From positions 15,269 through 79,268 of the forward strand of contig CAYYYP010000005.1 in the NCBI GenBank assembly GCA_964475985.1: DNA of 64,000 nucleotides, given 5' to 3'. The notes beneath the pieces were generated by a model. That model ran no database searches. It saw nothing but the letters and a program-made list of their open reading frames with translations, and was not told the DNA's origin. This DNA comes from an uncultured Oligoflexia bacterium. GTDB taxonomy: Bacteria > Bdellovibrionota > UBA1018 > CAYHWW01. Each line of letters starts with the position of its first letter. Within the stretch, counting starts at the first letter, position 1. This document shows positions 9,666 through 31,077 of this stretch, piece by piece. The position numbers were made by a program, and so were the translations under genes.

Positions 9666-10223
9666 ATGTCCATGAATCTTTTAAATTCACCCGAAAATCT
9701 TGAAAAACTCATCGCAATCGTTCCTGACTTTCCTACTAAGGGCGTTCTTTTTCGCGATATCACGCCACTCCTGGCTTCCAGCGAAGGTTTTGCCTTGGCG
9801 ATTGATGCTTTGGTTCAAGACATCGACCTTTCAGAAATTGATTGCATTGCAGGGATTGAATCCCGCGGCTTCATCCTAGCTGCAGCGCTTGCCGTGAAGT
9901 TTAATAAAGGGTTTCTGCCTATCCGGAAAAAAGGCAAACTACCTCAACCCGTGATTTCGCAAAGTTACAACTTGGAATACGGAACGGACGTCTTAGAAAT
10001 GCGTCCCTACAAACCGGTTTCCGAAGCCATTGCCAAAAAGCCACAAATTTTAGTGGTCGATGACGTCCTCGCCACGGGCGGCACAATTGCCGCAGCACTT
10101 AAGCTTTGCGAAAAGGCCGGCTACTTTGTGAAAGACATTTCCTTCCTTATCAATCTTGTGTACCTAAATACATTTCAATGGCAACAGACGCGTCCCAAAG
10201 CAGTATTCTCCTACAAAACATAA
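9666..10223 (+). CDS. apt: adenine phosphoribosyltransferase
   Basis: 185 aa with the PRTase motif VVDDVLATGGT. It is colinear with E. coli Apt over its full length. The 3' end overlaps the next gene. Confidence 0.85.
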   Translation: MSMNLLNSPENLEKLIAIVPDFPTKGVLFRDITPLLASSEGFALAIDALVQDIDLSEIDCIAGIESRGFILAAALAVKFNKGFLPIRKKGKLPQPVISQSYNLEYGTDVLEMRPYKPVSEAIAKKPQILVVDDVLATGGTIAAALKLCEKAGYFVKDISFLINLVYLNTFQWQQTRPKAVFSYKT

Positions 10224-13200
10224 ATCGCCTCCTTTGGCGGGGGTATCGTTTTGGTGGCTCTCTAAAACTTGCCGTCGTGGTCATTGTTGGACTTGCGGCA
10301 ACCTTAAGTTTTGCCACGGTTTATGAGTCCCTTCACGGAACCAAAGAAGTTCAGGCCATGGTTTATAACACTCCATGGTTCATTGCCCTGCTGACTTTGC
10401 TTGGCATCAACATCAGTTTTTCGGCGGCCCAAAGATTCCCGTGGAAAAAGCGGCTTCTAGGTTTTGTGATGGCCCACCTTGGCATCCTCATGCTGCTTTA
10501 CGGCGGTGCGCTCACTAGGCTTTATGGCCTTGATGGAACTCTTGCCCTAGAGCCGGGGGAGACCAGCAATCTCCTCACCATCGATGATCCACAAATTGAA
10601 ATCTGGGATAAAAACAAAAAAGGTTTTGTTCTAAAAGACAGTTTAAGCCTGAAGTCAAACCGAGCGCCCCTCGAGCTGACCTTGAAATCTACGGACGGCG
10701 AACACCAAGTTAAGATTCTGCAGATTTTACCGAAAGCGGTTTCTAGCGTTGAGTTTCGTGAAGTAAAAACAAAATCCGAAAATCCTCCAGCGCTCCTTCT
10801 TGAACTTTCTAGCGTTTTTATGGGCATGAATGTGCGGCAATGGTTAAGGGCCGGCGACCCCCAGTGGGGAAACGTAACCCTGGGGTTAGCGAATTTAAGT
10901 TTTGTGGCTGACTCTAAAATGCGGCCCCTTAGCGCATCTGCGAATCCCCATAACAAAATGCCAGGTCCTGGCACACGCAACGAACTTCAGATTCTTGCGA
11001 ATCCTGATCTGAGCCTTCGTTACGTTTTACGCTCTAAAAATGGCGAAAAAAAGGGCTCACTGAATGCGAGTGATTTGTCTAAGGCAAACCCCCAGTGGAT
11101 TGAAACTGGATGGCGCGACATTAAGGTCAGGATCGTAACTTTGGTACCTCATTCAGAACTCTTCCGGGAATACCGGGAGCCTTCGACAGAAGAACTCTCG
11201 AGGCAAAATGACTGGATCTCGGCACTTAAGCTTTCCTTTGACGGGGACGAAGCACGATTTGTGGAGTACCAAGACAGTCTTGAGTGGAACCAGTACCTCT
11301 TAAGATTTGGCCCTAAACTTGTGGCAATTCCCTTTTCTTTAACGCTTGAAAAATTTGAGATGGGAAAATATCCGGGGACCGATCGAGCAAAAACCTATTC
11401 GAGCTTTATTAAACTTACGGAACCCTCCCCTGAGTTTCGGGCGAAGTTAACGCCTGAGATGAAAGAAAGCATCCACATCACCATGAATGAACCTTTTGTT
11501 TACCGCGCCCTCACCTTTTACCAAGCAAGCTATCAGGAAAACGAAGGCGAGGGGGCGACCTCAATTCTTAGTGTGGGTTTAGATCCCGGGCGCCGCATAA
11601 AATACTTCGGAAGTATTCTGCTCGTGCTAGGAATTGTAGTCATGTTCTTCCAAAAAAGAGGTTTGAAATTTTTAATTCCAAAACGAATCCAAACAAAGTC
11701 TGAGTTTACAAAAACCGTAGGTGGTCTCGCTACATTTCTCCTTTTATTTAGTTTCCTTTCAAGTGCTGCCCTATGCGGGAATGTACTTGCTCAGAGTACG
11801 GCGGAGGCCCCGCCAAGTTATGCGCTAAGTCTCTCCCTTGATTCACTTAACCCGCAGCAACGCGAAGCCCTTGACCTCCTTTCTCACCTTCCCCTTCAGA
11901 ATGGGGGCCGCATCAAACCGTTAGATAGCTTTGCAAGGGATACGATTTTGTTCATCGCAGAGGGACGCCGCATCAGTACCGTTTCCGAATGGGACGCTAA
12001 ACTTTCGCCTCTTCTTTTACTTAGGGATTGGCTTTTGTATGCGCAGCTCTGGAGCAGGCGTGAATTTATCCCCGTTAAAAAAGATTCCATAAAAGAGGGA
12101 CTAGGGCTTCTTTTCAAAAAGCACCCTTACTACTCACCGGCCGAGATCTTAGGGGCCGGAAAACTTCAGGCCGTGATGGCAAATTTCGGTGAACAACAGC
12201 GTTTAGGTCATAAACTAAATACCCTGGAAAAGGACATGCAGCGGGTTCTTGAAAAGGCTCAACTTTTCCATGGCATCACTTCGGGCACACTTTGGACGGT
12301 GCTTCCGGGGGAGCCCGCTTGGTTTTCCTTGGTTGAACCCCTAGCCATGACTTCAGGCGTAGGCCCGCTTCTAGCAAAGGCATTTGAAACCCTTTCGCCA
12401 GAGGACGCTAAAACTTTAGCAGCGGTACAAATTTCACCACTGGCAAAAAACTCAAACGGTACGGATGCCACAGACGCCTCAATGCCGAGCCTTAAATCCT
12501 TGGCCGATAAATTAAATCGTGAAGTTCAATTCAATCGCTTAAGGCCGTTTCAAAAAAGTTGGATCCTTTACGGAATTGCATTTTTATTTTTACTTTTTGG
12601 CCGGATTTTTCAAGGAGGCAGATCAAACTTGATTAAGGGTTTAGGCCTTGGTGCATTCATCGCGGCCTTTGCCATGCATACCTACGGTTTTGTTTTACGC
12701 TGTTTGCTTACGGGCCATCCTCCAGTGACAAATATGTACGAGTCTACGGTTTGGGTTCCGTGGGGTGTTGCGATTTTTGCCTTAGGTATTTTTGTGGCTT
12801 ACCGAAAACATCCACGGGCACTCATGGTCCTGCTGGCGGCCTCCTTAGTTTCCATGTTTGCGCTTATTCTTTCCGATAACGTTCCGGCAGTACTTGATCC
12901 AACCATCAGGCCCTTGGAACCAGTCCTTAGGAGCAACTATTGGCTCACCATCCATGTACTTACAATTACGCTCGCCTACGCAGCGTTTGCTCTGTCCTTG
13001 GGGCTCGGCAATCTGACCTTAGGTTATTACCTTTTTAAACCTCAAGAAAATGAAACCATTTCTGTTTATACAGAATTCACCTACCGTGCGGTTCAGGTGG
13101 GCGTAGTATTATTAGCGGCCGGCACGATTTTGGGCGGAATTTGGGCTGACTACAGTTGGGGAAGATTTTGGGGATGGGATCCAAAGGAAACTTGGGCCCT

Positions 13201-13459
13201 GATTGCGCTCTTGCTTTATGTGGCCGTACTGCATGGCCGATGGGCTGGTTGGCTTAAACCCTTTGGCTTGATCCTAGGTACGGTTTGCTGCTTTTTAGGC
13301 GTGCTTATGGCTTGGTACGGCGTCAATTTTGTTCTGGGCGTAGGCCTTCATTCCTATGGTTTTGCGACCGGAGGCCTTGAATACGTTGCCGCTTTCATCA
13401 TTGTGCAAATGCTTTTTGTGGCATTGGTGGGCGTCAAACGGCATCTAAAAAAGGGGTAA
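10178..13459 (+). CDS. ccsBA: fused system-II cytochrome c synthase CcsB(ResB)-CcsA (CcsBA)
   Basis: About 1094 aa from the ATG at 10178. It has a ResB-like N-terminus, a large periplasmic region, and a C-terminal CcsA/ResC module with the Trp-rich WWD region (WADYSWGRFWGWDPKETWALIA). Confidence 0.75.
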   Translation: MATDASQSSILLQNINRLLWRGYRFGGSLKLAVVVIVGLAATLSFATVYESLHGTKEVQAMVYNTPWFIALLTLLGINISFSAAQRFPWKKRLLGFVMAHLGILMLLYGGALTRLYGLDGTLALEPGETSNLLTIDDPQIEIWDKNKKGFVLKDSLSLKSNRAPLELTLKSTDGEHQVKILQILPKAVSSVEFREVKTKSENPPALLLELSSVFMGMNVRQWLRAGDPQWGNVTLGLANLSFVADSKMRPLSASANPHNKMPGPGTRNELQILANPDLSLRYVLRSKNGEKKGSLNASDLSKANPQWIETGWRDIKVRIVTLVPHSELFREYREPSTEELSRQNDWISALKLSFDGDEARFVEYQDSLEWNQYLLRFGPKLVAIPFSLTLEKFEMGKYPGTDRAKTYSSFIKLTEPSPEFRAKLTPEMKESIHITMNEPFVYRALTFYQASYQENEGEGATSILSVGLDPGRRIKYFGSILLVLGIVVMFFQKRGLKFLIPKRIQTKSEFTKTVGGLATFLLLFSFLSSAALCGNVLAQSTAEAPPSYALSLSLDSLNPQQREALDLLSHLPLQNGGRIKPLDSFARDTILFIAEGRRISTVSEWDAKLSPLLLLRDWLLYAQLWSRREFIPVKKDSIKEGLGLLFKKHPYYSPAEILGAGKLQAVMANFGEQQRLGHKLNTLEKDMQRVLEKAQLFHGITSGTLWTVLPGEPAWFSLVEPLAMTSGVGPLLAKAFETLSPEDAKTLAAVQISPLAKNSNGTDATDASMPSLKSLADKLNREVQFNRLRPFQKSWILYGIAFLFLLFGRIFQGGRSNLIKGLGLGAFIAAFAMHTYGFVLRCLLTGHPPVTNMYESTVWVPWGVAIFALGIFVAYRKHPRALMVLLAASLVSMFALILSDNVPAVLDPTIRPLEPVLRSNYWLTIHVLTITLAYAAFALSLGLGNLTLGYYLFKPQENETISVYTEFTYRAVQVGVVLLAAGTILGGIWADYSWGRFWGWDPKETWALIALLLYVAVLHGRWAGWLKPFGLILGTVCCFLGVLMAWYGVNFVLGVGLHSYGFATGGLEYVAAFIIVQMLFVALVGVKRHLKKG

Positions 13460-17107: not shown

Positions 17108-17745
17108 AAAGCCTCCATCATGGTGTCGTAGGAGTCAGCCGCAATGAGCAGGGAAATGTCGTGCAGAGCATTTTGAAACCTGCTCTCGTTAATGAGGACT
17201 GAAGTATTTCCTAAATCACCTGCGATATTATTTCCCGGATAGAGGCGGGACCTAGAAAATCCTTTTCCCCAAAGTACGGCGCCGTCCCGTCGTTTCAGAT
17301 AAAGCGTTACCCCAGCGGTGGCTTGATACTCAGATGCCACGATGAAGTTTGAAGGAAGTGGGGCCGTACCGGTCGGCGAGTTTTGATTGAGTTGGGTTGC
17401 GCCGGAGACGCTGGTTACACTGCTCTGGGCTAAGTCAATGCTGCCGGTCAAAACGGCATCCGCATCTTCCACCCGGTCGGTGAGCTGAACCCTGCCCTGC
17501 TTTGCGTATTCCTGAAGTAATGCGCTAGTAAAGGGCACTTCAAGGCCAGCCTTAAGCGTGTTGTTTTTCAAAGGGTAGATATAAAGTTTATTAATTTTTT
17601 CCCGTGACCAAATATTTTCGGGCGAACGTAGATGGTAACCGCATCCCGTTACGCCACTTAAAAACAAAATTAAAAAACCAAGGGGTAGCGCCCTACGAGA
17701 GAGAAATCCTAAGGGCTTTGATAACTTTTTCCAATTTACGATCAT
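17104..17745 (-). CDS. lptE: LPS-assembly lipoprotein LptE
   Basis: Lipobox LSGVTGC followed by GYHLRSP (the LptE CG[FWY]HLRG signature). The start chosen is the ATG at 17745, which overlaps the upstream gene's 3' end. The ORF is open to 17847. Confidence 0.65.
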   Translation of the reverse strand: MIVNWKKLSKPLGFLSRRALPLGFLILFLSGVTGCGYHLRSPENIWSREKINKLYIYPLKNNTLKAGLEVPFTSALLQEYAKQGRVQLTDRVEDADAVLTGSIDLAQSSVTSVSGATQLNQNSPTGTAPLPSNFIVASEYQATAGVTLYLKRRDGAVLWGKGFSRSRLYPGNNIAGDLGNTSVLINESRFQNALHDISLLIAADSYDTMMEAF

Positions 17746-18736
17746 CCAAACGAGCCTTATCACGATACTGATTCTCCAACTCCTTGAGAGCTTCAAGGGC
17801 TTTCTGCTGTGGGTCCTTGTGGGCCGACTTGGACATGAGATTATCAAAAATATTCGTAATGGCTACAATCCTTGCAAGGTCATAAATGGCAAGGCCCTTC
17901 ATTCCCTTAGGAAAGCCCGTCCCATCCAAAAATTCATGGTGCTGTGCCACGATCATAAGCACTTCAGAGGGGATCTCCCGAGCATTTCGGTTCATTCCTT
18001 CGAGGAGATCACGCCCAATATTGGGGTGCTCCAGCCATTCTGGGTCATCTTCCTGAATGAGCCCCTCGGCTTTAACGCTCAAGGCTGTTTTGCCAATGTC
18101 GTGCAGGAGACCGCCAATGGCTAAATGTTCCAAAATAACCTGGCTAGTGTAACCAAGACGCAATCCAACAAAAATGCTCGTAACCGATACATTCACGGCA
18201 TGATCGATGGCACCTTTACCAAACTTATGAAGGGAGGCAACATTGTTGATGACAAAAGGCTTATCCAAAAATGCGGTGACCAGCTCTCGCGAGCGCTGAA
18301 GGGAGAACTTAATGGCCTCCTGTTTGGCGTGGGCTTCAAAAAGTGAAAACACACTTTTTCGCAAATCCAACACCGCGCCACGAATCGGCGCTTCCGCTTC
18401 AGGAACTTCGGCAGGTCGACTCACTTTCTTTACCCCGGCCAAAATTTCTTCAGGCGTTTGTTTTTTCAGGTCTTTGATATCGTTATTCTCAGCCCAAAGG
18501 AGAAATTCCAATTTACGTTCTTCGGGAATAAATACGGTGCGGACTTGGTTGAATAAAAGTTTATCAAACTCGGCCGGACTCAACTCATCGCCTTGGGACT
18601 TATACTTTACTAGTTTATGCCGTAAGCACAGAAAAAGATCGCCCGGCAGAGGCTGGGACGCAAGGAGTCGCAAAGTTGGCCAGGAAAGCTGACACGAAAT
18701 CTTTGTTTCTTCAGATTCTTTTTTTTTTGGCATCAT
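17693..18736 (-). CDS. HD-GYP domain c-di-GMP phosphodiesterase with an N-terminal domain of unknown function
   Basis: 347 aa with GGLLHDIGK and HHEFLDGTGFP motifs. It begins 13 bp downstream of the pelG-fusion stop on the same strand. Confidence 0.8.
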   Translation of the reverse strand: MMPKKKESEETKISCQLSWPTLRLLASQPLPGDLFLCLRHKLVKYKSQGDELSPAEFDKLLFNQVRTVFIPEERKLEFLLWAENNDIKDLKKQTPEEILAGVKKVSRPAEVPEAEAPIRGAVLDLRKSVFSLFEAHAKQEAIKFSLQRSRELVTAFLDKPFVINNVASLHKFGKGAIDHAVNVSVTSIFVGLRLGYTSQVILEHLAIGGLLHDIGKTALSVKAEGLIQEDDPEWLEHPNIGRDLLEGMNRNAREIPSEVLMIVAQHHEFLDGTGFPKGMKGLAIYDLARIVAITNIFDNLMSKSAHKDPQQKALEALKELENQYRDKARLDDRKLEKVIKALRISLS

Positions 18737-18749
18737 TCTCCCACCTTCT

Positions 18750-21131
18750 TTAATTTTTAAAAAAACTTCCGTCTAAGGCCCGGCCGGTGACTAACCCTAA
18801 AAATCCGTGCTTTTTCAAAGCTTCCAGCGCTTTTGCAGTTTGTCCTCGCCCCGTTAAATATTCTACGCCTAAAATGAGCTTCCGAGGCAAAGACTGCGAT
18901 TGCAGTTTTTTGACGCAGGACAGTACCTCTATCTGTGGCCGCCAAGGGTTATCCTGCCAGTTTGATCCGAAATAAAATGTTGATTCCAGAGCCAGAAGAT
19001 CAAAACTTTCTAAAAATTTTTTCTGGACCTCAAACTCTTTGAAGGCCGCTAGTTCAAGGAAAAGGCAGGGCGCATTCTGAATTGCTAAAAGAGCGGGTTC
19101 ACTCCCCCAGATGGATTTCATTTTTGCCCGCAGATCAATCACCAACTCAGCCATTTGGGTTGCGCGCAATGCTTGCTCAGCCTTGGGAAAGCGGCCATAG
19201 GCGTCGATCAAATCTAAGTACACACCGTTGAATCCTGCATCGTGGATTTTCCGTAAGTAATCATAAAGCACCGCGCGCCACTGCGGATCCCAAAATTTAA
19301 GCAGGTGATTTTTTTTAAACCGTTTGTTTTCTGAAACCAGAAGGCCCCTTTGCTTTATGCCTTGAAAGTACCAGCGATACTCCTCCGCTTCCCCAACGCT
19401 GAGGTAGGCTAGACTCCGGTGGGGATCACTCGGCGCGGTGGCCGAAAGGGTTTTTAGAAGATTTTTATTGGGTTCAAGCAAACTGATATCAAGCACGTAA
19501 AGCGTGGTTTGCCGCGCCGGCCGGTTTGAAAGGCCAGTAGGATCACCTTGAAGCTGATATATCCATTTTTCTATTTTAGGAAGTACGGCAGCTGTGTCTA
19601 GGGGACGGGCCGTTACCGGACTTGAAAATAGGGGCAAGGCAATCAGCGCCCAGATGAAGGAACTTTTTAGACTTCTATTTCGCGAAAAGAATTTATGTTT
19701 TGATTTCTTTGCGGAAGCAAGCGGTTGACGCTGAAAAATTAGAGAGTGCAATCGTCCCAGGACGTTATTTAGGTCCGTTAGGGAAACCGTAAGGCAAACC
19801 AGTGCCGCAAAGGCATAACCCATTCCAAAATATTTTCCGTAGTTGCCGCCAATGAATTTTAAGGAGAGCAGCGTGCCCCCGAGGTTGAGCAAAAACAATA
19901 TCAGATAATTTTTAAGCGCCATGAAGGGTAGGTCGAAATACAAAATGAGTAAGTTTGTAATGAGTGCAAAGGCATGAAACATGCTCCCAAGAAGCCCAAA
20001 TCGAAATACAATCAAAGTTACGGCCGGCAGTTTAAAGTACTGGGTGATGGTGGCAGACGCGGAATAAGCTAGGGCCGTGATTAAAATCTGAAATAAGAAG
20101 AGCCATTTGAATTCGGTGCGTAAACCCTGCACCATACGTTGCCTCGCATCTTCAAGCATCGCCAAGGGTGCCTTTTCATGAATCAAGCCAAAATATTCGC
20201 GGTAACGCATGTAAAATTTCACTTCAATCTGCACTAGAAATAATGCCATGGCGGGCACGACAAAAAGATATCCTAAAAAAATTCCGGCATCGTAGGAGGT
20301 TGACTTAAATAAGCCGTAGGCAACTTTTTCGCGGGTATGGGAATTGGTCCAAAAAAGAATTTTGTCGCACCACACCCCCAGGGAATAAAAGAAACCCACA
20401 GCACTTAAGACCCACCTCGTTTTCCAAAATTCTAAAAAACTTTCGCTGTGGGCTACCTTCGGTGAAAGGGACGGAGAATGCGGGGATGTTTGGAATTCCA
20501 ATTGGACTTTGCGAATGAGAATACCGTCGATCAATAAGTTGCCTAAAATAAAGCTTGTGAGTAGCCAGTTCAGCCCACTTATTCCGAGCTTACCGCCCAT
20601 CCAGACAGCCGAAATACTTAAGGCAGCACCGGCGATAAAACCCCAAACGATGGATAAATAATCCTTAAGGGCGCCTAAGAAAATCATGCAAACCCATTGA
20701 CCCATCAGCACCGCAATGACGATGCCGCATAAAACTAAGCTCAAACCAGGAATTTTAAGCAAATAAAAAAAGATCAGTCCGAGGGCTAAACCTACTGCCG
20801 TCGTTCGCCAAAATACCCGTTTAAAAAAACTCCCAATGCCTTCAATATTTTTAAAATAAAGGGCGTCGGCAATAAAGCGGGTGATGACCATTTCAACCAC
20901 GCCAAACAAAACGAGTGAAAAAGCGTAGGAGTAATTCAGAATTACGCGGAAAACTTCCCCGGATTTAGGTTCAGGAAAACGTTTAGCCAAAGAAGAAATC
21001 ACGGCAATGGTAAGAATTGCCATGAGCCAAGGACCGGAAGAAACTACTACGGAACCTAGGAGGCCTTGAGTCCTTTGAAACCAATTTCCGTGTTTGATGG
21101 CCCGGTGGAGGCGAAAGCCTATTCCTGCCAT
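18750..21131 (-). CDS. pelG: PelG-like polysaccharide exporter (MOP/MATE-like multi-TM protein) fused to a C-terminal GH114-like (PelA-hydrolase-type) TIM-barrel domain
   Basis: The start MAGIGFRLHRAIK is PelG-like and is followed by about 12 hydrophobic helices. Next comes a basic segment plus an extra hydrophobic helix (KSKHKFFSRNRSLKSSFIWALIALPLFSSPVTA). The following roughly 290 aa carry GH114/DUF297-like motifs (LAYLSVGEAEEYRWYF; WDPQWRAVLYDYLRKIHDAGFNGVYLDLIDAY). It is a single uninterrupted ORF. Confidence 0.6.
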   Translation of the reverse strand: MAGIGFRLHRAIKHGNWFQRTQGLLGSVVVSSGPWLMAILTIAVISSLAKRFPEPKSGEVFRVILNYSYAFSLVLFGVVEMVITRFIADALYFKNIEGIGSFFKRVFWRTTAVGLALGLIFFYLLKIPGLSLVLCGIVIAVLMGQWVCMIFLGALKDYLSIVWGFIAGAALSISAVWMGGKLGISGLNWLLTSFILGNLLIDGILIRKVQLEFQTSPHSPSLSPKVAHSESFLEFWKTRWVLSAVGFFYSLGVWCDKILFWTNSHTREKVAYGLFKSTSYDAGIFLGYLFVVPAMALFLVQIEVKFYMRYREYFGLIHEKAPLAMLEDARQRMVQGLRTEFKWLFLFQILITALAYSASATITQYFKLPAVTLIVFRFGLLGSMFHAFALITNLLILYFDLPFMALKNYLILFLLNLGGTLLSLKFIGGNYGKYFGMGYAFAALVCLTVSLTDLNNVLGRLHSLIFQRQPLASAKKSKHKFFSRNRSLKSSFIWALIALPLFSSPVTARPLDTAAVLPKIEKWIYQLQGDPTGLSNRPARQTTLYVLDISLLEPNKNLLKTLSATAPSDPHRSLAYLSVGEAEEYRWYFQGIKQRGLLVSENKRFKKNHLLKFWDPQWRAVLYDYLRKIHDAGFNGVYLDLIDAYGRFPKAEQALRATQMAELVIDLRAKMKSIWGSEPALLAIQNAPCLFLELAAFKEFEVQKKFLESFDLLALESTFYFGSNWQDNPWRPQIEVLSCVKKLQSQSLPRKLILGVEYLTGRGQTAKALEALKKHGFLGLVTGRALDGSFFKN

Positions 21132-22756
21132 GGTAAACTCTCTTGATTTATCCCACTGATATCGACACCACAAATAAGTTCGTTATAAAACTTGTCATAC
21201 TGCTCAAAAAGTTCCTTTTCGTGGTAAAAATGGCCAGCCCTAAGCATTCCGGCCTGGGAGCACTCTTCCCAAAATAGATCTTCCATCATAAGGCGCATTA
21301 TGGATTGAGCAATCCCTAAGCCATCGCCTAAGGGAACGATAAGTCCGCTGGGTCCTAAAATACGATCGGCTTCCGATAACCCTAAAATCATTTCCCGGCA
21401 CGCACCCACATCGGTCGCCACTACCGGTACACCGGCCGATGAAGCCTCCAGAATTACCAGGGGCTGAGACTCTGAGATGCTGGTGAGCACCAAAACATCG
21501 GCGGTCTGCAAAACTTCCGTGGCAGGGAGTAGACCTTCGAATTTTATGAGCTGAGAAAGGCCAAGGATTTGCACCATTTCTTCGCACTCTTTTACATAAT
21601 CCTTCTCTTCATTGTGGGGTCCGACGATGCGGCAAAAAAATGAAATCGGTTCCGCTTGGCTGACTTGCAAATCAAAAAGTAACTTTATGGACTTGATAAG
21701 TAGTTTGATATCCTTAATGGAAACCACTCGGCCTAAGAAAAGAATTTCGAAGGGTCGTTTTTCGGCGCGTTTTTTTGGCCAAAGTGGATGCCGAGTTCTT
21801 ATGCCTTGGTAACGATTGTGTACGCCATTAGGAACCACAAAACACTTTTTGGGATCGGCGCCATCAAATACTTGCCGTTTACGATTGCCTCCGTGCAAAG
21901 TAACCACGCGCGAAGCACCGGCGTAGGCTAAAGCACTCAAGTTCCTAAAGACATTGATCCACCAGCTACGAAAATGTTTCAAAGGCTCAAAGGGAAGTTG
22001 CAGCAGAAGGCCAGGATCATAAAGCCAATTGGCTTCCCCCAATTCAATGGCGCGCTCATGAGCATAGATACCATGTTCCGTAACCATAAAGGGTGAAGCG
22101 TGCTGCATTGCCGCCAATATACCGCAAAGCCCCGCATATCCCGTACACATGGAATGGTACACTTTGGCGTTGGGGTAACTTAAATTGATGAGCCGCAGAA
22201 GCGGAATTTGGATGGCGCGCCAGGAATAAAAAAAGTCAAGAAAGGGCAAACCTTGTTTCATGGGGGATACCCGCTCGTATTCATCAACGATGACGTCCCA
22301 GGCGTCCTCGCTTTGCAAATGCCTGAGTACACTTTCCGAGGACATGCTTTTGGCAAACTTTTTAAGTTTAAATAAATCCTGTTTATTAAATTTAGCGTGT
22401 TGCAAATCCTCGGGACTTTGAAAAATATCAAATCCATCGTGAACGGAATTACCCTGGATCAGCGTCTGAAATTCCTGGAAGGAGGCCATGGCGGCTTGCA
22501 GATTCTTGGCGTTCAAGGCGCCGGTATCGGACGAAAATTCGTCAAACAGAAATACCTCCCTTAAGTGCAACACATTAGCCGGCAATTCGTACTGCATTGG
22601 CGGCAATTGATCGGAGCGTGAACCCAGGTAGAGAATTTCAAATGTGAGATGCGGCAAACCTTTGATCAAGGCGTGGGTCCAACTGGCCACTCCGCCGTAA
22701 ACGTAGGGGTAAGTGCCCTCTAGTATTAAGCAGACATCAGCCACGGGCCACCTCAT
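21119..22756 (-). CDS. pelF: PelF-like GT4 glycosyltransferase
   Basis: 545 aa. The N-terminus VADVCLILEGTYPYVYGGVASW is the PelF-specific DUF3492-like start. The C-terminal half is a GT4 fold. Confidence 0.75.
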   Translation of the reverse strand: MRWPVADVCLILEGTYPYVYGGVASWTHALIKGLPHLTFEILYLGSRSDQLPPMQYELPANVLHLREVFLFDEFSSDTGALNAKNLQAAMASFQEFQTLIQGNSVHDGFDIFQSPEDLQHAKFNKQDLFKLKKFAKSMSSESVLRHLQSEDAWDVIVDEYERVSPMKQGLPFLDFFYSWRAIQIPLLRLINLSYPNAKVYHSMCTGYAGLCGILAAMQHASPFMVTEHGIYAHERAIELGEANWLYDPGLLLQLPFEPLKHFRSWWINVFRNLSALAYAGASRVVTLHGGNRKRQVFDGADPKKCFVVPNGVHNRYQGIRTRHPLWPKKRAEKRPFEILFLGRVVSIKDIKLLIKSIKLLFDLQVSQAEPISFFCRIVGPHNEEKDYVKECEEMVQILGLSQLIKFEGLLPATEVLQTADVLVLTSISESQPLVILEASSAGVPVVATDVGACREMILGLSEADRILGPSGLIVPLGDGLGIAQSIMRLMMEDLFWEECSQAGMLRAGHFYHEKELFEQYDKFYNELICGVDISGINQESLPWQE

Positions 22757-23969
22757 GACTTGACCAGTGGTTCAAGCAGGCGGCAGCCCTTACGAATAGG
22801 GGTCCAGAGAGGCCTATTTCGTCAAAGACCCATTTTGAAAAATGAAGGACCTCAGATGATTTAGGACGATCTAAGTTCAAGATCGCAAGAATGGTCTGGG
22901 CCATTTCAAGATTTTTTACCGTCGTAGCGTTTCGTAACAATGAGAAAAGAATTTCAAACGGAATTCTTCGTCCCGAAATATTCTTATTTTGTAAACTTCC
23001 TTGCAGTAGCCTTAGGAGTTGAAGCTGTAATTCCGGTTTGAGTTCTTGCTCAAGTAAATTCATTAACACGTCCCGGAAGAGCCACGCCTGCACCCGCAGA
23101 AAATCCATTAATAGATTTGCCTTTGCGGTATCCGGATGCATGCCTAGGGCGAGCACTTCTTTCCAGTACTTGAGGGACCACTTCACCGGTTTTAAGAAAT
23201 TAAGGATTAGCCTTAGGAAATGTTCATCAAAATCAAAAATTTTTATGGGTTCATAAGCCTGCTGCGTTACGGAAAGGGCAATCTCCCGAGCCAAAATCTC
23301 ACGATAGCGGCTCAAAATTTGGTTGGTTTTGTCCGGCAGGCTGCTTAGAGACATGCTTTTCAACTCAGCGTGAAAAATTTCCACCTGATTGCTCCGCGCA
23401 CCACAGATGAGCAACTCTTGGCAAAGCCCTTCCACCGCCTCCTCCATAAAGCCTGCTTTAAAAAACTGAAACCGTTCCAGAATCAGACGCTGAATTCCCG
23501 GGTCCTTTAAAAGATAGGGACGTTTTGCGAGATGATGGAAAAAAACCGCTAAGAATTCTACCCCACCCCCTTTGCATGATTCATAAAATCTCAGGACCGA
23601 TTCCGGCTGCAACGCCCTAATTCCAAAAAAAGACTTTAAGATATTAAGGCTTAAAAAACTTGTGGGTTGGACTCCGGGAAGCGCTAGTGCCGAAATTAAA
23701 GCGCTAAACCACCCTTCGCATTCCCTAAGCCCTAAAGTGCCTAGGTTCACCAGAGCTTGCATCACCTCAATCATCGCCCCCTGAACCACGAGGGTTTCCC
23801 GGGAAAAAATTTTCCCGTACTCCTGAGTCGGAAAGGCCTTAGGATTTTCGGGCAACCTTAACCAGGCGATTCGCCTTACCAGCTCATCCGGATCCTGGAG
23901 TAATTTTGTTAGCTCCGAAGTTTCAAGAATCGCTTGGTCTTGCCATAAAAAATTCAAATCCCTATTCAT
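22737..23969 (-). CDS. hypothetical soluble helical protein inside the pel-like operon
   Basis: 410 aa with no obvious transmembrane segment and no recognised domain. It is Leu-rich and helical. It overlaps neighbours by 4 to 20 bp, which is operon-style packing. Confidence 0.4.
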   Translation of the reverse strand: MNRDLNFLWQDQAILETSELTKLLQDPDELVRRIAWLRLPENPKAFPTQEYGKIFSRETLVVQGAMIEVMQALVNLGTLGLRECEGWFSALISALALPGVQPTSFLSLNILKSFFGIRALQPESVLRFYESCKGGGVEFLAVFFHHLAKRPYLLKDPGIQRLILERFQFFKAGFMEEAVEGLCQELLICGARSNQVEIFHAELKSMSLSSLPDKTNQILSRYREILAREIALSVTQQAYEPIKIFDFDEHFLRLILNFLKPVKWSLKYWKEVLALGMHPDTAKANLLMDFLRVQAWLFRDVLMNLLEQELKPELQLQLLRLLQGSLQNKNISGRRIPFEILFSLLRNATTVKNLEMAQTILAILNLDRPKSSEVLHFSKWVFDEIGLSGPLFVRAAACLNHWSSHEVARG

Positions 23970-24757
23970 TTAAAGTTTTGCTCCAGCCAAAAGAGAACCT
24001 GCTCGCGAATTTCATCGGGCAATTTATCGCTGCCGCCACAACGACGCACCAGCTCCTGGCAGCATCGTTTTACCCCCGGAAAGTCCGATTGCATAAAATA
24101 GGCTTCCGCTTTCCAAAACCAGCCATTAAACCAATCCGGCGCAAAAACCATGGCCTGGTCAAAACAGAAAATCGCCTTTTCCAAAAGATTTTCCTGAAGG
24201 TGTATTTTTCCCAACTGTCGCCAGTAATAGGTATTATCCGGATTGCTCTCCACTGCCGCCTGCATGAGTTTTCTCCCAATTTGAATGTGGGAGTACGTTA
24301 CTTCTGGATCCATAAGTCCCGTGCGGTAAGCGATCATCAGTGATTCGATTAAGTTGTAAAGCTCCTGCGGCGAGGGCTTAGCGACGTCAGGGTAGGAGCT
24401 TAAAAGTTTCACCTCGTTTAACCAACGCTTTTCAAAATAAGCTAAGGCCTGCGTCGCTAAATAACAAATTTCATAATCTGGATCGCGCTGGGCCACTCGC
24501 AAGAGTATGACGCTATCCCGAGAGAATCGCCTCTTTAAGCGTCCAATGACTTCACGCTTCACACTTTTACTGCCTCCGCGAATGAGATCACTTAGGGATT
24601 GCAGCGACATGTTTTCTGAACTTAAGGCATCTTTAGCGAAAATCTCGGAATAACTTTTAGCCAATAGTTCGAGGGATCGTTCCTGAAAAAAACGCTCATC
24701 GGCCGCTTGGGTATCATAAAATTCCTGGAGTGCCCGGCCGCGGATGTTTAAGCTCAC
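23966..24757 (-). CDS. TPR-like repeat protein, possibly a PelE analogue lacking transmembrane helices
   Basis: 263 aa with TPR-like helical repeats (YYWRQLGKIHLQENLLEKAIFCFDQAMVFAPDWFNGWFWKAEAYF). No hydrophobic anchor. Confidence 0.45.
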   Translation of the reverse strand: MSLNIRGRALQEFYDTQAADERFFQERSLELLAKSYSEIFAKDALSSENMSLQSLSDLIRGGSKSVKREVIGRLKRRFSRDSVILLRVAQRDPDYEICYLATQALAYFEKRWLNEVKLLSSYPDVAKPSPQELYNLIESLMIAYRTGLMDPEVTYSHIQIGRKLMQAAVESNPDNTYYWRQLGKIHLQENLLEKAIFCFDQAMVFAPDWFNGWFWKAEAYFMQSDFPGVKRCCQELVRRCGGSDKLPDEIREQVLFWLEQNFK

Positions 24758-26310
24758 GATGGAGTTATCCCAGTAAGACCATTTTTATTGATATAACTCT
24801 TCCACGATAAATTTTTATCCTCACTCTTCACGGACTCTGGGTTCACCTCGATTCGCTTCATACCAAGCGCCGGCAAACCAGTAATAAATTGCCTTAAACG
24901 CGCATATTCATGCGTAACTGATTCATCCAACGCACGTAAAGTTGCTCCGTCTACACCTCGGGCAAATAACTTAAAGGAAGCATCCTTCGGATCACTATAA
25001 AACGTGGCTTGCCCCGCGAGACTTAAGTGCGCGATGCCGTCGCTTAAGGCCCGAGAAAACGCTTTTCGAAATACGATTTCACGTGCCTCTAAAAAATCGA
25101 CATCGGGCCACTCCGGGGTCCATTCCAAAAGACTCAAATTGATTTTTGTTTTTTTTGCGAGCAACCAATCTTCTTCGGCCCGTACATCTAAAACCCTTGT
25201 GGAAAAACATTGGCCGATAAAGTCCCAAAAATCATCCTCCTGATTTTGGGTTAAGCCCTGGCTCTTGCGGAGGGCCACGCCAAACCACCGAGAAAGTTCG
25301 CGCAATGCCGCAAAGTTAGAACTTTTATAATTCATGAACTGAAAGCTGTGGAACAGGATGACCCCTAAAATATTTTGGGAATCATCCATAAGCGGAACGA
25401 CCACGGGGTACCGTGCACGACTCCCCTTAGAAGATCCGGCTGCGTTCTCCCCGGCGTAGAGCTGAAATGTAAATACATCCCGGTTAGAAATTGCGTATCC
25501 AATCTCACTAATCTCCGAAAATTCCTTCCGAGGAATTTCCTTAGGAAATCGTTTTTGATCCGCCACAACGGGCGCCAAGCGCTTGAGCCCCGGATGTTCA
25601 AAACGATAGATCGCAAAATCCTCCTCGCTAAAATATTCCGAGAGAAACCGGTAAAAACGTACGCCTAAAAGTTCGGTTGAGATATTAAAGGATTCTCGGC
25701 CAAAACGAAAAATTTCAAGTGCGCTCTGCACTCTGGCCGCAAGCCTTCGTTCCATGTTCTGGCTTTCGGCAGTGAGACGTTGTCGCACCACTGCAGATTC
25801 CCCTAAGTTGTGAAGTAATTTTTGGTTTTCATCTTCAATGCCCTTAGTTTTCCGCCGAAAAGCATCTCCCACTACGCCAAAGGCAAAGCAGGTTAAGAGA
25901 AACGAAAGCGGAAACTTAAAGTAATTTGCGGAAAATACGCTCTCAACCTCAAGCACATCGAGCCTACTGGCTTCGTAAAAAAAATAAAACCCACCGTAGA
26001 CCACTCCCAAAAGCAGGGCAGGTTTTAGACCAGCAAGTACCGAGAGGATGCCCAGGCAAAAAAGATAAGGGTGTGGGTTCACGTCAATATAGGCCGGATT
26101 TCCGCCATTCAGTAATCCTAAAATCAGTCCGGGAAGCAGTCCCACCAGAAAGGCCGAAAGGGAATGGGTCATGGTCGGGAAATATTTTTGAATCTTAAAA
26201 CCACCAGCTAAAAATCCCCTTGGCGACGTGGACTCCTGCAAATCCTCCAGTGGGTTCCGTGGCGGAACCGGGGGCGTTGGCGTTGAAGAGCTGGGATGTG
26301 TAGAATCCAT
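24754..26310 (-). CDS. pelD: PelD-like c-di-GMP receptor (N-terminal transmembrane helices + GAF-like + degenerate GGDEF)
   Basis: There are four hydrophobic helices in the N-terminal 150 aa, followed by a soluble region of about 350 aa. Its position between PelB and PelE/F-like genes matches pel gene order. The start may instead be MTHSL (26172). Confidence 0.5.
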   Translation of the reverse strand: MDSTHPSSSTPTPPVPPRNPLEDLQESTSPRGFLAGGFKIQKYFPTMTHSLSAFLVGLLPGLILGLLNGGNPAYIDVNPHPYLFCLGILSVLAGLKPALLLGVVYGGFYFFYEASRLDVLEVESVFSANYFKFPLSFLLTCFAFGVVGDAFRRKTKGIEDENQKLLHNLGESAVVRQRLTAESQNMERRLAARVQSALEIFRFGRESFNISTELLGVRFYRFLSEYFSEEDFAIYRFEHPGLKRLAPVVADQKRFPKEIPRKEFSEISEIGYAISNRDVFTFQLYAGENAAGSSKGSRARYPVVVPLMDDSQNILGVILFHSFQFMNYKSSNFAALRELSRWFGVALRKSQGLTQNQEDDFWDFIGQCFSTRVLDVRAEEDWLLAKKTKINLSLLEWTPEWPDVDFLEAREIVFRKAFSRALSDGIAHLSLAGQATFYSDPKDASFKLFARGVDGATLRALDESVTHEYARLRQFITGLPALGMKRIEVNPESVKSEDKNLSWKSYINKNGLTGITPS

Positions 26311-28972
26311 AACTCAAATGTAAACTCATCGTACCTAAAACAAAATCACCAAGGTCAAATTCCAAATATTCTGTGGTATTTCCCGCAACTTCCCGTTGAG
26401 GCCCGTTCTCAAAATTTTTGCCCCATCCGCCAGAGATCTTAGGGCCGCTCGCAAAATAACCAGACTGACGCAAAGCGCCGTTAGTTGCATTGCGACACAA
26501 GCTGTCCCATGCACAGAAAATTTCAAATGAAATAAAGCCACCGCCAAATGCCATCCGTTGAAGCATCAGGTTTTCCAGGGACTCACCGCTAGCCAATCGA
26601 CCGTTGCCTACCCATCTCAACCACTGTGCCCAGGGACCCACCGAGAATCCTAATGTGTTTTCAGGTTTCCCAAAGGAAATTCTTGAACTGGACTCCAAGC
26701 CAAAGCCCTGAGCAAAAGCAAAATGATCTTCAGAATTATTTACGTGGGTGAATCGAACGCGTGCCCCTTGAACAAAAAGTATCCAAGGATGCAAAATGAC
26801 TTCCCCATAACCCTCAAGGGTAGACTCCGAGGCTCCGGCGCCCACGAGTGAACGAGAAATATTTAAGGGGGCAGAGAGGTTTGCCTCTAACATACCGTAA
26901 CGTAGTGCTCCGTAGGCGGCCATTAACCTGGTCTCAAGTCTTGGCCTGAATCCACGCCAATCGCCGAGCTCGGTGAGTCGCACACCCGCGCGCATTTCCC
27001 AAGCAAGCGTAGGGCTCATCGTGTAGCTCACAAAAGCTTCCGGAGAAATGAGATGAAGGTGGTTGTCCCAAAATGACTCCTGACTCACGATGACCCCTAA
27101 CCGCCAAGCAGTCTGTTTTAGCGGTGTATGAAAAATCAGGTTTTTTTCCGTCGTAGAAAATTCATCTAAAAACACGCCATTAAATTCAAAACCAAAGTAA
27201 TGCGATTGCGGCAATGCCAGTTCATTTACCAAAATCGCTTCCGCCGTTTTTGTACCCTCAGCGGCTTGAAGTTCAACGGATTTTGCGGCCACTTCATTTC
27301 TTTTTGCGAGATCAATTTCTTGCAAACGGGAAACGACGTCAACCAAAGTTAGTCGTTCGGCAGGTAACCGTTTTTCTATCTCTGCTTCAAGCCGCGGCAA
27401 TTGTGGTCCGATTAGCCTGGCCTCCGTATCGGTTAGCCCACCAGCCTCATACTTTGCGATGAAACCGATGGCCGTAAGTACCGGTGCATTTGAGAAAGTA
27501 AAATTTTTAAGCTGGCCCTGAAATTCAAGCAGACCAGAAGCCTCTCCACTCCAAAGGTACCTTAAAAAAAGCTGTTCAAGCACGTGGGTTTTTAATTTGG
27601 TAAGCCCTGGCCTGGCTTCAAGTTTTCGCCAAAGCTCCATGTATGACTTTCTTGCTTCCTCATTTTTTTGCTGAGCCTCAAGGCTAGCCACCAGGAGTCG
27701 GTAGTCCTTCCAAAGTTCTTCCCCGCTCAAAATCCCCGCGGATTGGGCTAAGGCGTTAGGGAAGGGAGTTAAAAGTTCTAAGAACTTAAGTAGGAAATAG
27801 GACCGTTGCTTCAGTCGCTTCATTGCGGCTTTTGGATCTTCACCCGCAACTAAGGCTTGCATGATTTGTTCAGCAAGTTGTGGGTCATGGAAATCTAATG
27901 CTGCTTGGGCAAAGCTTCGCCATGTTTCCCGCGAAATCTTTAAATCCCCGATCAAGTTATCATCAAAAAGAAATTCCCTAAGGGCTTGCCGAGCGACCCG
28001 CGCTCCATCGGCTCCGATACCGGCTTGCACGTGCAGGGCATCAAGTTTGAGCTGCAAAAAGTCAATTCCGCGCTGAGTAAGCAGAGCCTGGTGTGTAAGC
28101 GCTAGTTGAAAAAGCGAGTAAGCTTCGCCCTTAAGCGCAGGAAATTTAGCGGCATCAAAGGCAATATCCAGAAATGCGTGGATCTCGGCATTCCATTCAC
28201 GTACGGAAATTTTTTGGCAATAGTTCAAGTAGTCCAGCAGGGCACGGCGCAGCTGTGAGAAGTCACTTAAGTTCGTGTCTCGAAAGTTTCGTTCAGCGCG
28301 GCTTACCCAATAATTTAGTCGGAAAATCGTAATTCCGTAGGCCTTAACGCTTTTGTCATCACCCAGAATTTCAAACGCACGCTTAAAGTTTCCTTGGCTT
28401 GCAAGGGTACGAAGCCACCGGTTGAAATCATCAAGGGGTAAAAGACTTTGGCGCCAAATTTTTTCATAAACCCGCAGCGCATCGGGCGCCGATTGCAGCC
28501 ACTCATAATCATGGGCTAACCGCAGATAACGGGCGGGCCCTGACTGCGGAGCCGTCACCACCTCTTCCCCCCTGAGATTTTGCACGTGCGGTAACGGAAT
28601 TTTATTATCCCATAGATATTCCTCAACTCGGGCGGCTTCCAGCGCCCGGCCCTGCCACCTCAGTTGCCGCAACAGACGCTCCCAATAGTTTTTATTGTTA
28701 GGCCTGAGTTTCGTAAGGTCATAAAGAATTTTTATGGCCTCTGAAACATTGCCTTCCACTTCCAGCACATCCACCATTTGCCTTAACGCCACGGCATCTG
28801 GCATTTTCGTAAGCATAGCCCGCCGGAGAATCGGCTCGGCAAGTTCTGGCTGAAAGCTTTGAAAACGCAAGGCCGCTAACTCGGTGTCACTTGGCATGGT
28901 AAAAAACAGACTCAGCGCACCCATGCTAAAAAAAGCCAAAATTAAACTAGGATCCATGAAATTTCGTTTCAC
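26195..28972 (-). CDS. pelB: PelB-like TPR scaffold with a C-terminal outer-membrane beta-barrel
   Basis: 925 aa with an N-terminal signal/anchor and many TPR-like helices. The C-terminal roughly 300 aa show alternating hydrophobic beta-strand character and end ...GIFSWWF (a terminal aromatic). Confidence 0.55.
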   Translation of the reverse strand: MKRNFMDPSLILAFFSMGALSLFFTMPSDTELAALRFQSFQPELAEPILRRAMLTKMPDAVALRQMVDVLEVEGNVSEAIKILYDLTKLRPNNKNYWERLLRQLRWQGRALEAARVEEYLWDNKIPLPHVQNLRGEEVVTAPQSGPARYLRLAHDYEWLQSAPDALRVYEKIWRQSLLPLDDFNRWLRTLASQGNFKRAFEILGDDKSVKAYGITIFRLNYWVSRAERNFRDTNLSDFSQLRRALLDYLNYCQKISVREWNAEIHAFLDIAFDAAKFPALKGEAYSLFQLALTHQALLTQRGIDFLQLKLDALHVQAGIGADGARVARQALREFLFDDNLIGDLKISRETWRSFAQAALDFHDPQLAEQIMQALVAGEDPKAAMKRLKQRSYFLLKFLELLTPFPNALAQSAGILSGEELWKDYRLLVASLEAQQKNEEARKSYMELWRKLEARPGLTKLKTHVLEQLFLRYLWSGEASGLLEFQGQLKNFTFSNAPVLTAIGFIAKYEAGGLTDTEARLIGPQLPRLEAEIEKRLPAERLTLVDVVSRLQEIDLAKRNEVAAKSVELQAAEGTKTAEAILVNELALPQSHYFGFEFNGVFLDEFSTTEKNLIFHTPLKQTAWRLGVIVSQESFWDNHLHLISPEAFVSYTMSPTLAWEMRAGVRLTELGDWRGFRPRLETRLMAAYGALRYGMLEANLSAPLNISRSLVGAGASESTLEGYGEVILHPWILFVQGARVRFTHVNNSEDHFAFAQGFGLESSSRISFGKPENTLGFSVGPWAQWLRWVGNGRLASGESLENLMLQRMAFGGGFISFEIFCAWDSLCRNATNGALRQSGYFASGPKISGGWGKNFENGPQREVAGNTTEYLEFDLGDFVLGTMSLHLSYGFYTSQLFNANAPGSATEPTGGFAGVHVAKGIFSWWF

Positions 28973-31077
28973 AGGCGTCGCACCTCGATGGTTTGCGGCA
29001 CGGACTTTACCTCAAAATCCAAAGCGAGGATTCGTTTATCCTTAGACCGCACTTTACCTCCTACTACCGTAACCCCTTCAAGCGAAGTGTCTCTCGCCTC
29101 AAGAATTAAGGGACCTCGTGCCCAAGCCGCTAATTTCACCCGTATACCTTTCTTTGTCGGCAGCACATCAAAGGCGTCCACAACTCCCCCAACACTTTGC
29201 AACGCAAATGGAAGGGAGGAATTCATAAACCGGCAATGCGGACTTCGGTAGATTTGAACTTTAAGGTTTTGTCGATGCGGCATGGGATGCAAGTAAGTTT
29301 TATTTTTAATCCGAACAGATCCCATGAAATCCTTGGACGACACACAGAAGCCTGGGTCCTCCAGTCGAAAATCCGCCACGTTACCCACATTGCGAATCTC
29401 CAGAGTGTTGGGTTTACCCAACTCATGGTAAAAATCAGTCTCTAAAAATCCCTCGACGGCGCGTATATAAGTGGTCGGCGGCACCAGGGCAATCTCCTCG
29501 GAGTGAGCTTTAAACCAACGAATGATATTTTTTAATGCCAGGAGGGATTGCGGTCTTTCACCTGAGTAAAAATGAAAATACGCATTGGCCGGTTTCAATG
29601 TGAAACCCAAGGGTGAGTTAAGGCCGGTATTTTCATAGGTTTGAATGACACTTTCAAATCCGCGGTAATTTTTTGTAAACCCATCAGTGTAAATGAAGTC
29701 ATTGGCGTTTCCAGAAAACACCTGGAAGCCCGAGGCCCAAGGCCTCCCAAGTGGCGCCAAAAAAGCCAAGGAAGGAAACACCGTATCAAATCTAGAATCA
29801 CCGCCGTTTAAGTTATAAAGTCCGGCGGCCTTCGTCATTCTCATTGCCCGCTCCCCCGGAACGCAGCCGCCCGACCAGTAAATCGTTTCAACCTCAGATT
29901 CTTTTTTTTGCAAAAGCTTCGCAATGGCGCTGCGGGATTTGAGGATCTCTATCTCAAGGTCTATTTTCTCGCGCGAACCATCATCAAAACTGGTCGTACC
30001 CCTCATCCAATTCAGAGGATGAAAAAAAGTATGCGTAGCAAACTCTACATTTTTTAAATTTCCAAAACTTTTTACAATGGACTCTGTTCGTTCATTCCCC
30101 AGGTGCCGGCTTAAGACTTCGCTTGCGATAAAGGAGACGCCAAAGGGAATGTCAGGATTTCTCAGGAGAATTTCATCCCGGATCACTTCGCCGGAGAGGG
30201 GCTCTGGTTGTTTTTCAAAATGCGCTTCCGAGGAAAAACCATCACCATCGGTGTGTAAAAAAGCAATCCTGCGACCGTTCAGAACCGAAACGTCAGGAAC
30301 GATCATTTCTTTCGGTAAACCTAAAGCCCGTTGCAAAAATAATATGGGGTTTACAACCCATTGCCGCCTTTCTGAGCCTACGTCACTGAAGAGGCCGAAG
30401 TTCCCGTAGGCCCAAGAGAAGTTTTTTGCGGAGTGCGCGATCTGACTGAATAAAATCGATTCCTGGGCGCCCTTAGGCGAACCCATGGCGAGAAGCGTCT
30501 CGCCCGCATGGGCCCTAACTCTTAAAGTAACAAAGTCGTCCACCCACTCCGGGGACTTTCTCTCAAAATCTAAAACGGCCGCCTGATTTTTAATCACCTT
30601 CAAACCAAAGGGTTTGGTTTCAAAGTGCTGATACTCCGCCCCCCATCGCAAAAAGAATTCGTTTAGATTTGCGGCCGGGATCTGTGATAAAAAACCAAAG
30701 CTTCCAAAGGCGATCCACTTAAGTCTGGTCTGCGCTAAAGAATTGAGCCAACGGAAAAGTTTTTGATGATTGACCAGACTTTCCGAAAAAAAAAGGGTCG
30801 CTACGGCGCGAACTTTATTGTCCTGAATCAATTCCGAAGCAGGTGGCAACGTCTGGGTATCAATGTCGATGAGGCGGGTGCGCATCCCCAGCAACTGCAG
30901 AGGGAACTCTAGGGCAAGGCTCGCGGGGTTATCCGAAATACTGCCCGATTCCTTAGAGGACCAGAGGCAGATCACTTCCCTTGGAAAAGGAAGAGACGCT
31001 GAAAAGGCAAACCGCGGAAAAAAATCTACCAAAATCAAACAAATGAAAAAGATTTTTATTTGATTTTTTTTCCCCAT
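28969..31077 (-). CDS. pelA: PelA-like polysaccharide deacetylase (CE4) lacking the N-terminal GH114 hydrolase module
   Basis: 702 aa with a signal peptide. It has CE4-like motif 1 (AFLHTDGDGF) and motif 2 (ATHTFFHP). This length fits the reductase-like, CE4 and jelly-roll parts of PelA without the hydrolase domain. Confidence 0.55.
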   Translation of the reverse strand: MGKKNQIKIFFICLILVDFFPRFAFSASLPFPREVICLWSSKESGSISDNPASLALEFPLQLLGMRTRLIDIDTQTLPPASELIQDNKVRAVATLFFSESLVNHQKLFRWLNSLAQTRLKWIAFGSFGFLSQIPAANLNEFFLRWGAEYQHFETKPFGLKVIKNQAAVLDFERKSPEWVDDFVTLRVRAHAGETLLAMGSPKGAQESILFSQIAHSAKNFSWAYGNFGLFSDVGSERRQWVVNPILFLQRALGLPKEMIVPDVSVLNGRRIAFLHTDGDGFSSEAHFEKQPEPLSGEVIRDEILLRNPDIPFGVSFIASEVLSRHLGNERTESIVKSFGNLKNVEFATHTFFHPLNWMRGTTSFDDGSREKIDLEIEILKSRSAIAKLLQKKESEVETIYWSGGCVPGERAMRMTKAAGLYNLNGGDSRFDTVFPSLAFLAPLGRPWASGFQVFSGNANDFIYTDGFTKNYRGFESVIQTYENTGLNSPLGFTLKPANAYFHFYSGERPQSLLALKNIIRWFKAHSEEIALVPPTTYIRAVEGFLETDFYHELGKPNTLEIRNVGNVADFRLEDPGFCVSSKDFMGSVRIKNKTYLHPMPHRQNLKVQIYRSPHCRFMNSSLPFALQSVGGVVDAFDVLPTKKGIRVKLAAWARGPLILEARDTSLEGVTVVGGKVRSKDKRILALDFEVKSVPQTIEVRRL

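Follow-up and report, generated by a model that had tools for sequence, protein, structure and literature searches.

Pel is a widespread biofilm matrix polysaccharide. A stretch of 64,000 nucleotides from an uncultured Oligoflexia bacterium (positions 15,269 to 79,268 of contig CAYYYP010000005.1, assembly GCA_964475985.1), referred to here as the window, carries a locus which, judged from its predicted PelF, PelG, PelA and PelD-like products, belongs to a complete operon for a Pel-type exopolysaccharide. Whilst the Pel system itself is known, what is new is that this locus appears to encode an anchorless PelE, a protein of 263 amino acids (E263), together with a protein of 410 amino acids (X410) that is probably a reduced member of a recurrent and unnamed accessory family. 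The explanation put forward, to which a probability of about 60% is given, is that the operon belongs to a Pel sub-type with an extra solenoid encoded between pelE and pelF, that both helical-repeat proteins have been reduced in this lineage and that they would have a scaffold role.

In Pseudomonas aeruginosa, PelD, PelE and PelG are described as forming a complex in the membrane, to which the soluble glycosyltransferase PelF is recruited (PMC8461298, citing Whitfield 2020), with PelE the predicted protein-interaction module of this inner-membrane PelDEFG complex (PMC12345266; PMC8461298). The assembly of the complex and the means by which PelD activates PelF have yet to be explained (PMC8461298). 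The original prediction for the window, made from its letters alone, held that two soluble proteins share the position of PelE. The two open reading frames are as it described them, with overlaps of 4, 4 and 20 bp at their junctions, and membrane segments are lacking from both proteins, but the sharing of one position does not stand, as only E263 appears to be the PelE homologue and X410 fills a second slot that in related loci belongs to a HEAT-repeat protein.

E263 and the PelE anchor

E263 is encoded between the pelD-like gene and pelF, with the X410 gene intervening before pelF. Its link to PelE comes from comparison with the PelE-slot proteins of sampled pel loci (given below by their L numbers) and not with the P. 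aeruginosa PelE sequence, and there is no PelE model in Pfam or NCBIfam. By BLASTP, residues 6-257 of E263 align with residues 91-339 of a PelE-slot protein of 344 amino acids (L006_344) at an E-value of 2e-28, and a protein of 196 amino acids from L001 is matched at 7e-13. With phmmer the PelE-slot protein of L060, which has the canonical pelD-pelE-pelF order, is found at 5.5e-15 and that of L014, a locus with the extra gene, at 1.5e-13; a word-based database search with E263 returned the query itself only. A TPR_2 match is found at residues 177-208 (33.7 bits against a Pfam cut-off of 27), and the profile of the PelE-slot family also matches TPR structures. Between the hairpin and the TPR region, the PelE-slot proteins of L003, L004, L006, L012 and L013 have a HEAT/alphaRep-like stretch that corresponds to residues ~55-112 of E263, for which the profile matches 9sah_A (E-value 4e-14) and the L025 protein weakly matches NblB.

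In a multiple alignment E263 starts at the point where its homologues leave the membrane, their first ~90 residues being absent, a stretch in which these homologues carry two to four hydrophobic segments. The lack of membrane segments was judged by Kyte-Doolittle hydropathy and not by a dedicated transmembrane predictor, with the highest 19-residue window at 0.74 in E263 and 1.35 in X410, compared to 2.15 in the PelD-like protein and 2.48 in PelG. Across 50 PelE-slot proteins the hydropathy maximum of the first 120 residues has a median of 2.38 and the N-terminus is hydrophobic in 48, the two low values looking like artefacts. One comes from a frame that runs off the end of its contig, for which it was checked that the upstream frame encodes hydrophobic segments, and the other from a frame of 451 amino acids that has three hydrophobic segments over its full length and probably an over-long N-terminal call.

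E263 is thus very probably a PelE without its anchor, a protein which, as far as such alignments can tell, is the cytoplasmic interaction module of PelE (HEAT-like stretch plus TPR) after loss of the membrane hairpin. Like P. aeruginosa PelE it has a TPR cytoplasmic domain and a gene that follows pelD and precedes pelF, but it is without the N-terminal transmembrane hairpin and its gene is not directly adjacent to pelF. That the TPR protein is the equivalent of PelE had already been proposed, and the BLASTP and phmmer matches bear this out.

The two genes are closely tied to their neighbours. The start codon is GTG for E263 and ATG for X410, with the pelD-like/E263 junction being GTGA and the E263/X410 junction ATGA, both 4 bp overlaps, and X410 overlapping pelF by 20 bp; from these junctions the translational coupling to the pel genes that had been suggested is again predicted. 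Both E263 and X410 also have the look of genuine genes. Logan data from SRR14932552 and SRR14932553 (L008 and L009) contain a strain whose pelB-pelF region is 98.8-99.4% identical to that of the window, and as L008, an independent assembly, has the same two open reading frames without indels over 6.6 kb at 98.8% identity, the shortened forms of E263 and X410 are not assembly errors. Compared with L008, E263 has 6 synonymous and 2 non-synonymous differences and X410 has 4 and 2 respectively, and an open frame of 410 codons is far beyond chance at 47% GC.

X410 and the gene slot before pelF

The loci of the relatives were found through PelF, the closest PelF proteins being 38-44% identical. In L002/L003, L004/L005, L006, L012 and L013 (Halobacteriovorax sp.) a HEAT_2-positive protein of 648-673 amino acids is encoded between the PelE-slot gene and pelF. 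A frame of 658 amino acids in L011, cut by the contig end and directly upstream of pelF, matches the same HEAT family, and in L010 the slot holds only a cut fragment of 192 amino acids. Across the sampled loci the family is 630-700 amino acids in length, the nine long members scanned reach 33-173 bits with HEAT_2, and the family profile matches alphaRep structures at an E-value of 1.7e-51. The NCBI annotation of MBK24380.1 (Halobacteriovorax sp.) and MBI4404441.1 (Deltaproteobacteria bacterium) is 'hypothetical protein'.

Scans with a three-sequence HEAT alignment found the source contig only among genome contigs and no matches in metagenomes, therefore the survey was made from the PelF side, which biases the test of synteny. 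Using a PelF alignment 80 metagenomic pel loci were fetched, 45 of which were classified by locus type, with a HEAT gene upstream of pelF in 13 of the 45 (about 30%) and pelE directly before pelF in 32. The nearest neighbours of a PelF protein are mostly of the same locus type, those of the window PelF being L001, L004 and L006. Going by sequence and gene order, the HEAT proteins make up an accessory family of pel loci that recurs and has as yet no name. A study of pel operon classification makes no mention of such a HEAT gene (PMC7112194), and in the full-text literature no paper was found that names PelF, PelG and HEAT repeats together, nor anything relevant to PelD with HEAT repeats or PelF with armadillo.

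It is likely, from a weak profile similarity together with position, that X410 descends from a gene of this family. By BLASTP, its residues 250-402 are 30% identical to residues 514-654 of L006_670 (pairwise E-value 3e-5), and hhalign, run against three or six members of the family, gives 48.2 and 43.0 for these C-terminal regions. The second of these scores can be set against 100 shuffles of X410, which give 16.4 ± 2.2 with a maximum of 22.8 (none reaches 43.0, z = 12), and against the reversed sequence, which scores 23.7; across the 38 open reading frames of at least 250 amino acids in the window X410 is the sole outlier, the next scoring 20.9 and the median being 16.3. A hidden Markov model of 19 family members places residues 245-403 of X410 on model positions 496-650 with 15.5 bits (hmmsearch). 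In X410 and the family alike the match runs collinearly and lies at the C-terminus, and X410 shares with L003, L004 and L006 the motifs W-x-L-x-x-W-(K/R), ILAIL, F-x-x-W and a terminal A-x-x-x-L-x-x-W.

A similar reduced pair is found in L001 (8666-10008), where a PelE-like protein of 196 amino acids, which has a single hydrophobic segment and lacks the TPR end, is followed by an X-like protein of 251 amino acids. This second protein matches the same C-terminal region of the family, with 35.6 by hhalign against 15.1 ± 2.2 for shuffles, and the rest of the L001 operon is complete, including the same 702-amino-acid PelA-like gene. A phmmer search with X410 and the L001 protein (L001_251) against 820 plus-strand open reading frames of at least 100 amino acids from the 80 pel loci gave no match.

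The idea that the shared C-terminal domain is a conserved functional core was considered and dropped, as family-wide conservation is lowest there. Because of this the C-terminal similarity is, as judged from the alignments, a mark of common descent with the subgroup of L003, L004 and L006 and not of a universally conserved core. X410 resembles the long HEAT_2 proteins in its slot, in a similarly close junction with pelF, in being all-helical with no transmembrane segment and in its C-terminal ~155 residues. It differs from them in having no detectable HEAT_2 repeats, in the 249 N-terminal residues that are unmatched, in the lack of an accompanying receiver gene and in being shorter by about 250 residues. 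The proposal that X410 is a candidate new Pel component has therefore to be altered rather than abandoned, since it probably belongs to a recurrent accessory family of pel loci but as a reduced member that is not unique to this locus; the family of this slot is syntenic with pel genes elsewhere, and X410 did not turn out to be a known, unrelated family.

The receiver gene that accompanies the family stands directly upstream of pelD and encodes a receiver-only response regulator. It is present in 9 of the 11 HEAT-type loci with enough sequence (L014, L017, L018, L022, L028, L056, L061, L066 and L087) and in none of 20 loci without a HEAT gene, and is also found in L004 (2616-2984), L012 (5204-5644) and L013 (5279-5656). 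Two of the three receivers tested match PF00072 with 64-70 bits, the third being sub-threshold at 23.8 bits. The gene is absent from the window operon, where there is no open reading frame between pelB and pelD, and from L001, both of which have short X proteins. Given its presence in most HEAT loci and its absence alongside the short X proteins, the HEAT array and the receiver seem to have been gained and lost together.

Competing accounts and a possible scaffold role

A number of points weigh against the explanation put forward. A word-based search of 5.8 billion clusters recovered the query only and a full phmmer search of 1.84 billion representatives recovered X410 only, and there is no Pfam or NCBIfam match at E ≤ 0.1, HEAT models included, in keeping with the original view that X410 has no recognisable library domain. 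The similarity to the family is weak, with an hhalign probability of 60-80% and an hmmsearch score that would be below database-wide E-value significance, it falls in the least conserved part of the family, and residues 1-249, some 60% of the protein, have no hhalign match to the family. Single-sequence AlphaFold2 models are of low confidence (predicted local distance difference test scores of 60.5 and 50.3); that of X410 resembles ARM/HEAT solenoids, and the E263 model was not used. Lastly, the survey was centred on PelF and finds HEAT genes that adjoin pelF, which is no proof that the family is confined to such loci. The lack of homologues and of HEAT matches, the unmatched N-terminal part and the place of the similarity within the family would fit a lineage-specific orphan, unrelated to the family, that replaced the ancestral HEAT gene, either newly arisen or horizontally inserted, its C-terminal likeness being the product of a leucine-rich helical composition and the constraints of the pelF overlap. 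Such an origin is unlikely when the score far exceeds what the shuffled and reversed sequences and every one of the 37 other large frames of the window reach, when the alignment is collinear for ~150 residues at the C-terminus of both proteins, well beyond the 20-bp overlap, and when the L001 protein of intermediate character in the same slot matches the same C-terminal region. GC content is also uniform around the operon, at 46-49%.

It may also be asked whether the two genes do anything, as both proteins are truncated relative to their homologues, X410 is extremely diverged and the associated receiver gene is missing. They might be decaying remnants under relaxed selection, with the Pel machine working without them or not at all. 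The ratio of non-synonymous to synonymous change (pN/pS) between the window and the 98.8% identical strain is ~0.1 in all five genes compared, E263 and X410 being like the neighbouring pel genes, an estimate based on 6 to 8 substitutions per gene. Together with this ratio, the two intact frames and their preservation free of indels in a second strain, the overlapping start/stop junctions that have been kept, the intact state of all other pel genes and the parallel reduced pair in the otherwise complete L001 operon make decay very improbable. A role in regulation is doubtful; the pair would then be no structural part of the synthase but an add-on that acts on PelD, such as an anti-activator or an adaptor for cyclic di-GMP (c-di-GMP) or for a phospho-relay. 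The association of the receiver with HEAT genes and the HD-GYP gene after pelG in the window are what one would expect of this, whereas the lack of a receiver gene in the window operon, the position and coupling of the two genes between structural genes and the lack of any sequence sign of ligand binding are not. Regulation and the preferred explanation do overlap, as a scaffold can also be regulatory.

The preferred explanation, that of a Pel sub-type in which an additional cytoplasmic alpha-solenoid protein is encoded between the genes for PelE and PelF, would account for the locus as follows. Most members of the sub-type have a HEAT-repeat protein of 630-700 amino acids and a receiver-only regulator before pelD, whilst in the lineage of the window both helical-repeat proteins would have been reduced, PelE losing its hairpin, the HEAT protein being brought down to 410 amino acids and the receiver disappearing. 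The divergence of X410 would be such that its kinship can now be recognised in the C-terminal ~155 residues alone. The overlaps suggest coupled translation, by which the synthesis of E263 and X410 would keep pace with that of PelD and PelF, and E263 and X410 may serve as soluble scaffolds that hold soluble PelF on the membrane-embedded PelD and PelG, reaching the membrane through contacts with these two proteins. The extra solenoid would take part in PelF recruitment, probably between the PelE repeat domain and PelF, and as a full-length HEAT protein it may pass on the state of the receiver. For a scaffold role of X410 and E263 in the PelDEFG synthase, a proposal drawn from position, coupling and fold, the chances are about even.

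A broader and more tentative proposal, on the doubtful side of an even chance, is that the Pel synthase has a module not described before, made up of the receiver and the ~650-amino-acid HEAT protein, which probably links phospho-signalling to the recruitment or activity of PelF. The window would then be a minimal derivative of this module, in which the receiver and HEAT array were lost together, the C-terminal domain was kept and PelE became anchorless. The HEAT-plus-receiver module as a whole is the more interesting object, with the window holding a degenerate example of it.

The surrounding operon and its implications

In the list of open reading frames the operon is a run of closely packed minus-strand frames from 31077 to 17693, in the order pelA(deacetylase)-pelB-pelD-pelE'-X-pelF-pelG::GH114 and then an HD-GYP gene (Table 1). 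The pelD gene is directly downstream of pelB, and in a search confined to the operon no open reading frame of pelC size (at least 80 amino acids) was found between pelB and pelD nor elsewhere in it.

Table 1. Genes of the Pel-type operon in the window, with the C-terminal domain of X410 listed separately
Feature	Position	Strand	Length (amino acids)	Description
A702, PelA-like	28969-31077	-	702	signal-like N-terminus; deacetylase part of PelA only
B925, PelB-like	26195-28972	-	925	TPR N-terminus and long C-terminal region
D518, PelD-like	24754-26310	-	518 (longest open reading frame)	transmembrane region, GAF and GGDEF-like domain
E263, PelE homologue (predicted)	23966-24757	-	263	HEAT-like stretch at ~55-112, then TPR; no hairpin
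X410	22737-23969	-	410	all-helical soluble sequence orphan
X410 C-terminal domain, residues 245-403	22761-23237	-		sole part of X410 with detectable HEAT-family similarity
F545, PelF GT4 glycosyltransferase	21119-22756	-	545	NF038011 and DUF3492
G807, PelG with extra transmembrane segment and C-terminal GH114	18750-21173	-	807	PF16933 and PF03537
HD347, HD-GYP-type protein	17693-18736	-	347	HD_5

The identities first given to PelF and PelG are upheld by the NCBIfam and Pfam scans, with F545 matching NF038011 at 428.5 bits and DUF3492 at 246 bits, and G807 matching PF16933 at 324.7 bits over residues 15-480. Behind an extra hydrophobic segment, residues 536-801 of G807 match PF03537 (GH114, PelA-hydrolase-like) at 53.6 bits, a domain that is a separate gene after pelG in the related loci L002, L004 and L010. 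The PelA-like A702 has no Pfam match, and by phmmer against the PDB its residues 235-547 match residues 440-757 of PelA 9cgy_A at an E-value of 2.2e-40, which is the deacetylase region, with the hydrolase domain missing; a hydrophobic segment is found at residues 9-27. A split PelA is known from the Gram-positive pel operons of Bacillus cereus, where PelA_DA is in the operon and PelA_H is an accessory gene (PMC7112168). The separation of deacetylase and GH114-type hydrolase is the same in the window, but there the hydrolase is fused to the C-terminus of PelG.

The remaining assignments are less direct. B925 is called PelB-like from its position, from N-terminal TPR_14 and TPR_19 matches that are below the Pfam cut-offs and from similar genes in L001, L004, L012 and L013. 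D518 has three hydrophobic segments and a weak GAF_3 match, and as a single sequence query of the PDB it gave nothing useful, a profile being needed; that of D518 with five orthologues matches the PelD GAF domain 4euv (E-value 6e-6) and the GGDEF domains 6zxm (E-value 2.9e-9). The longest D518 frame overlaps pelB by 116 bp, and as the gene call in L008 is of 472 amino acids and a start at Met47 (26172) removes the overlap, this is probably the true start and gives a protein of 472 amino acids.

HD347 begins 13 bp after pelG and matches HD_5 at 69.6 bits, with a NosR-family response regulator/phosphodiesterase model matching its HD part only; it is possibly a c-di-GMP phosphodiesterase. A second HD-GYP-type gene (HD_5 or NosR-family phosphodiesterase-like) is found in the window at 3995-5467 on the plus strand, and L001 likewise has an HD_5 gene adjoining its pel operon. 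The presence of HD-GYP-type genes near pel suggests local turnover of c-di-GMP. The flanking genes in the window include topA, holA, a mlaD-like gene, nadB and a gene with a CcsB domain, and as predicted from their sequences they indicate a chromosomal region of a diderm bacterium. In the 1117-amino-acid open reading frame at 10106-13459 on the plus strand the match to CcsB (cytochrome c biogenesis) is confined to residues 852-1085. No Rfam families were found in the window.

If the broader proposal of a HEAT-plus-receiver module is true, the transmembrane hairpin of PelE would be dispensable for Pel synthesis when such a partner is present. The window locus may be seen as a natural "deletion series" that points to the parts of PelE and of the HEAT protein that may be dispensable, and as small soluble proteins E263 and X410 would be convenient for interaction and structural studies. 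Should the HEAT subunit work with the synthase, the canonical seven-gene model of Pel would lack a component in the case of many environmental bacteria, and c-di-GMP would be likely to be joined by a second regulatory input.

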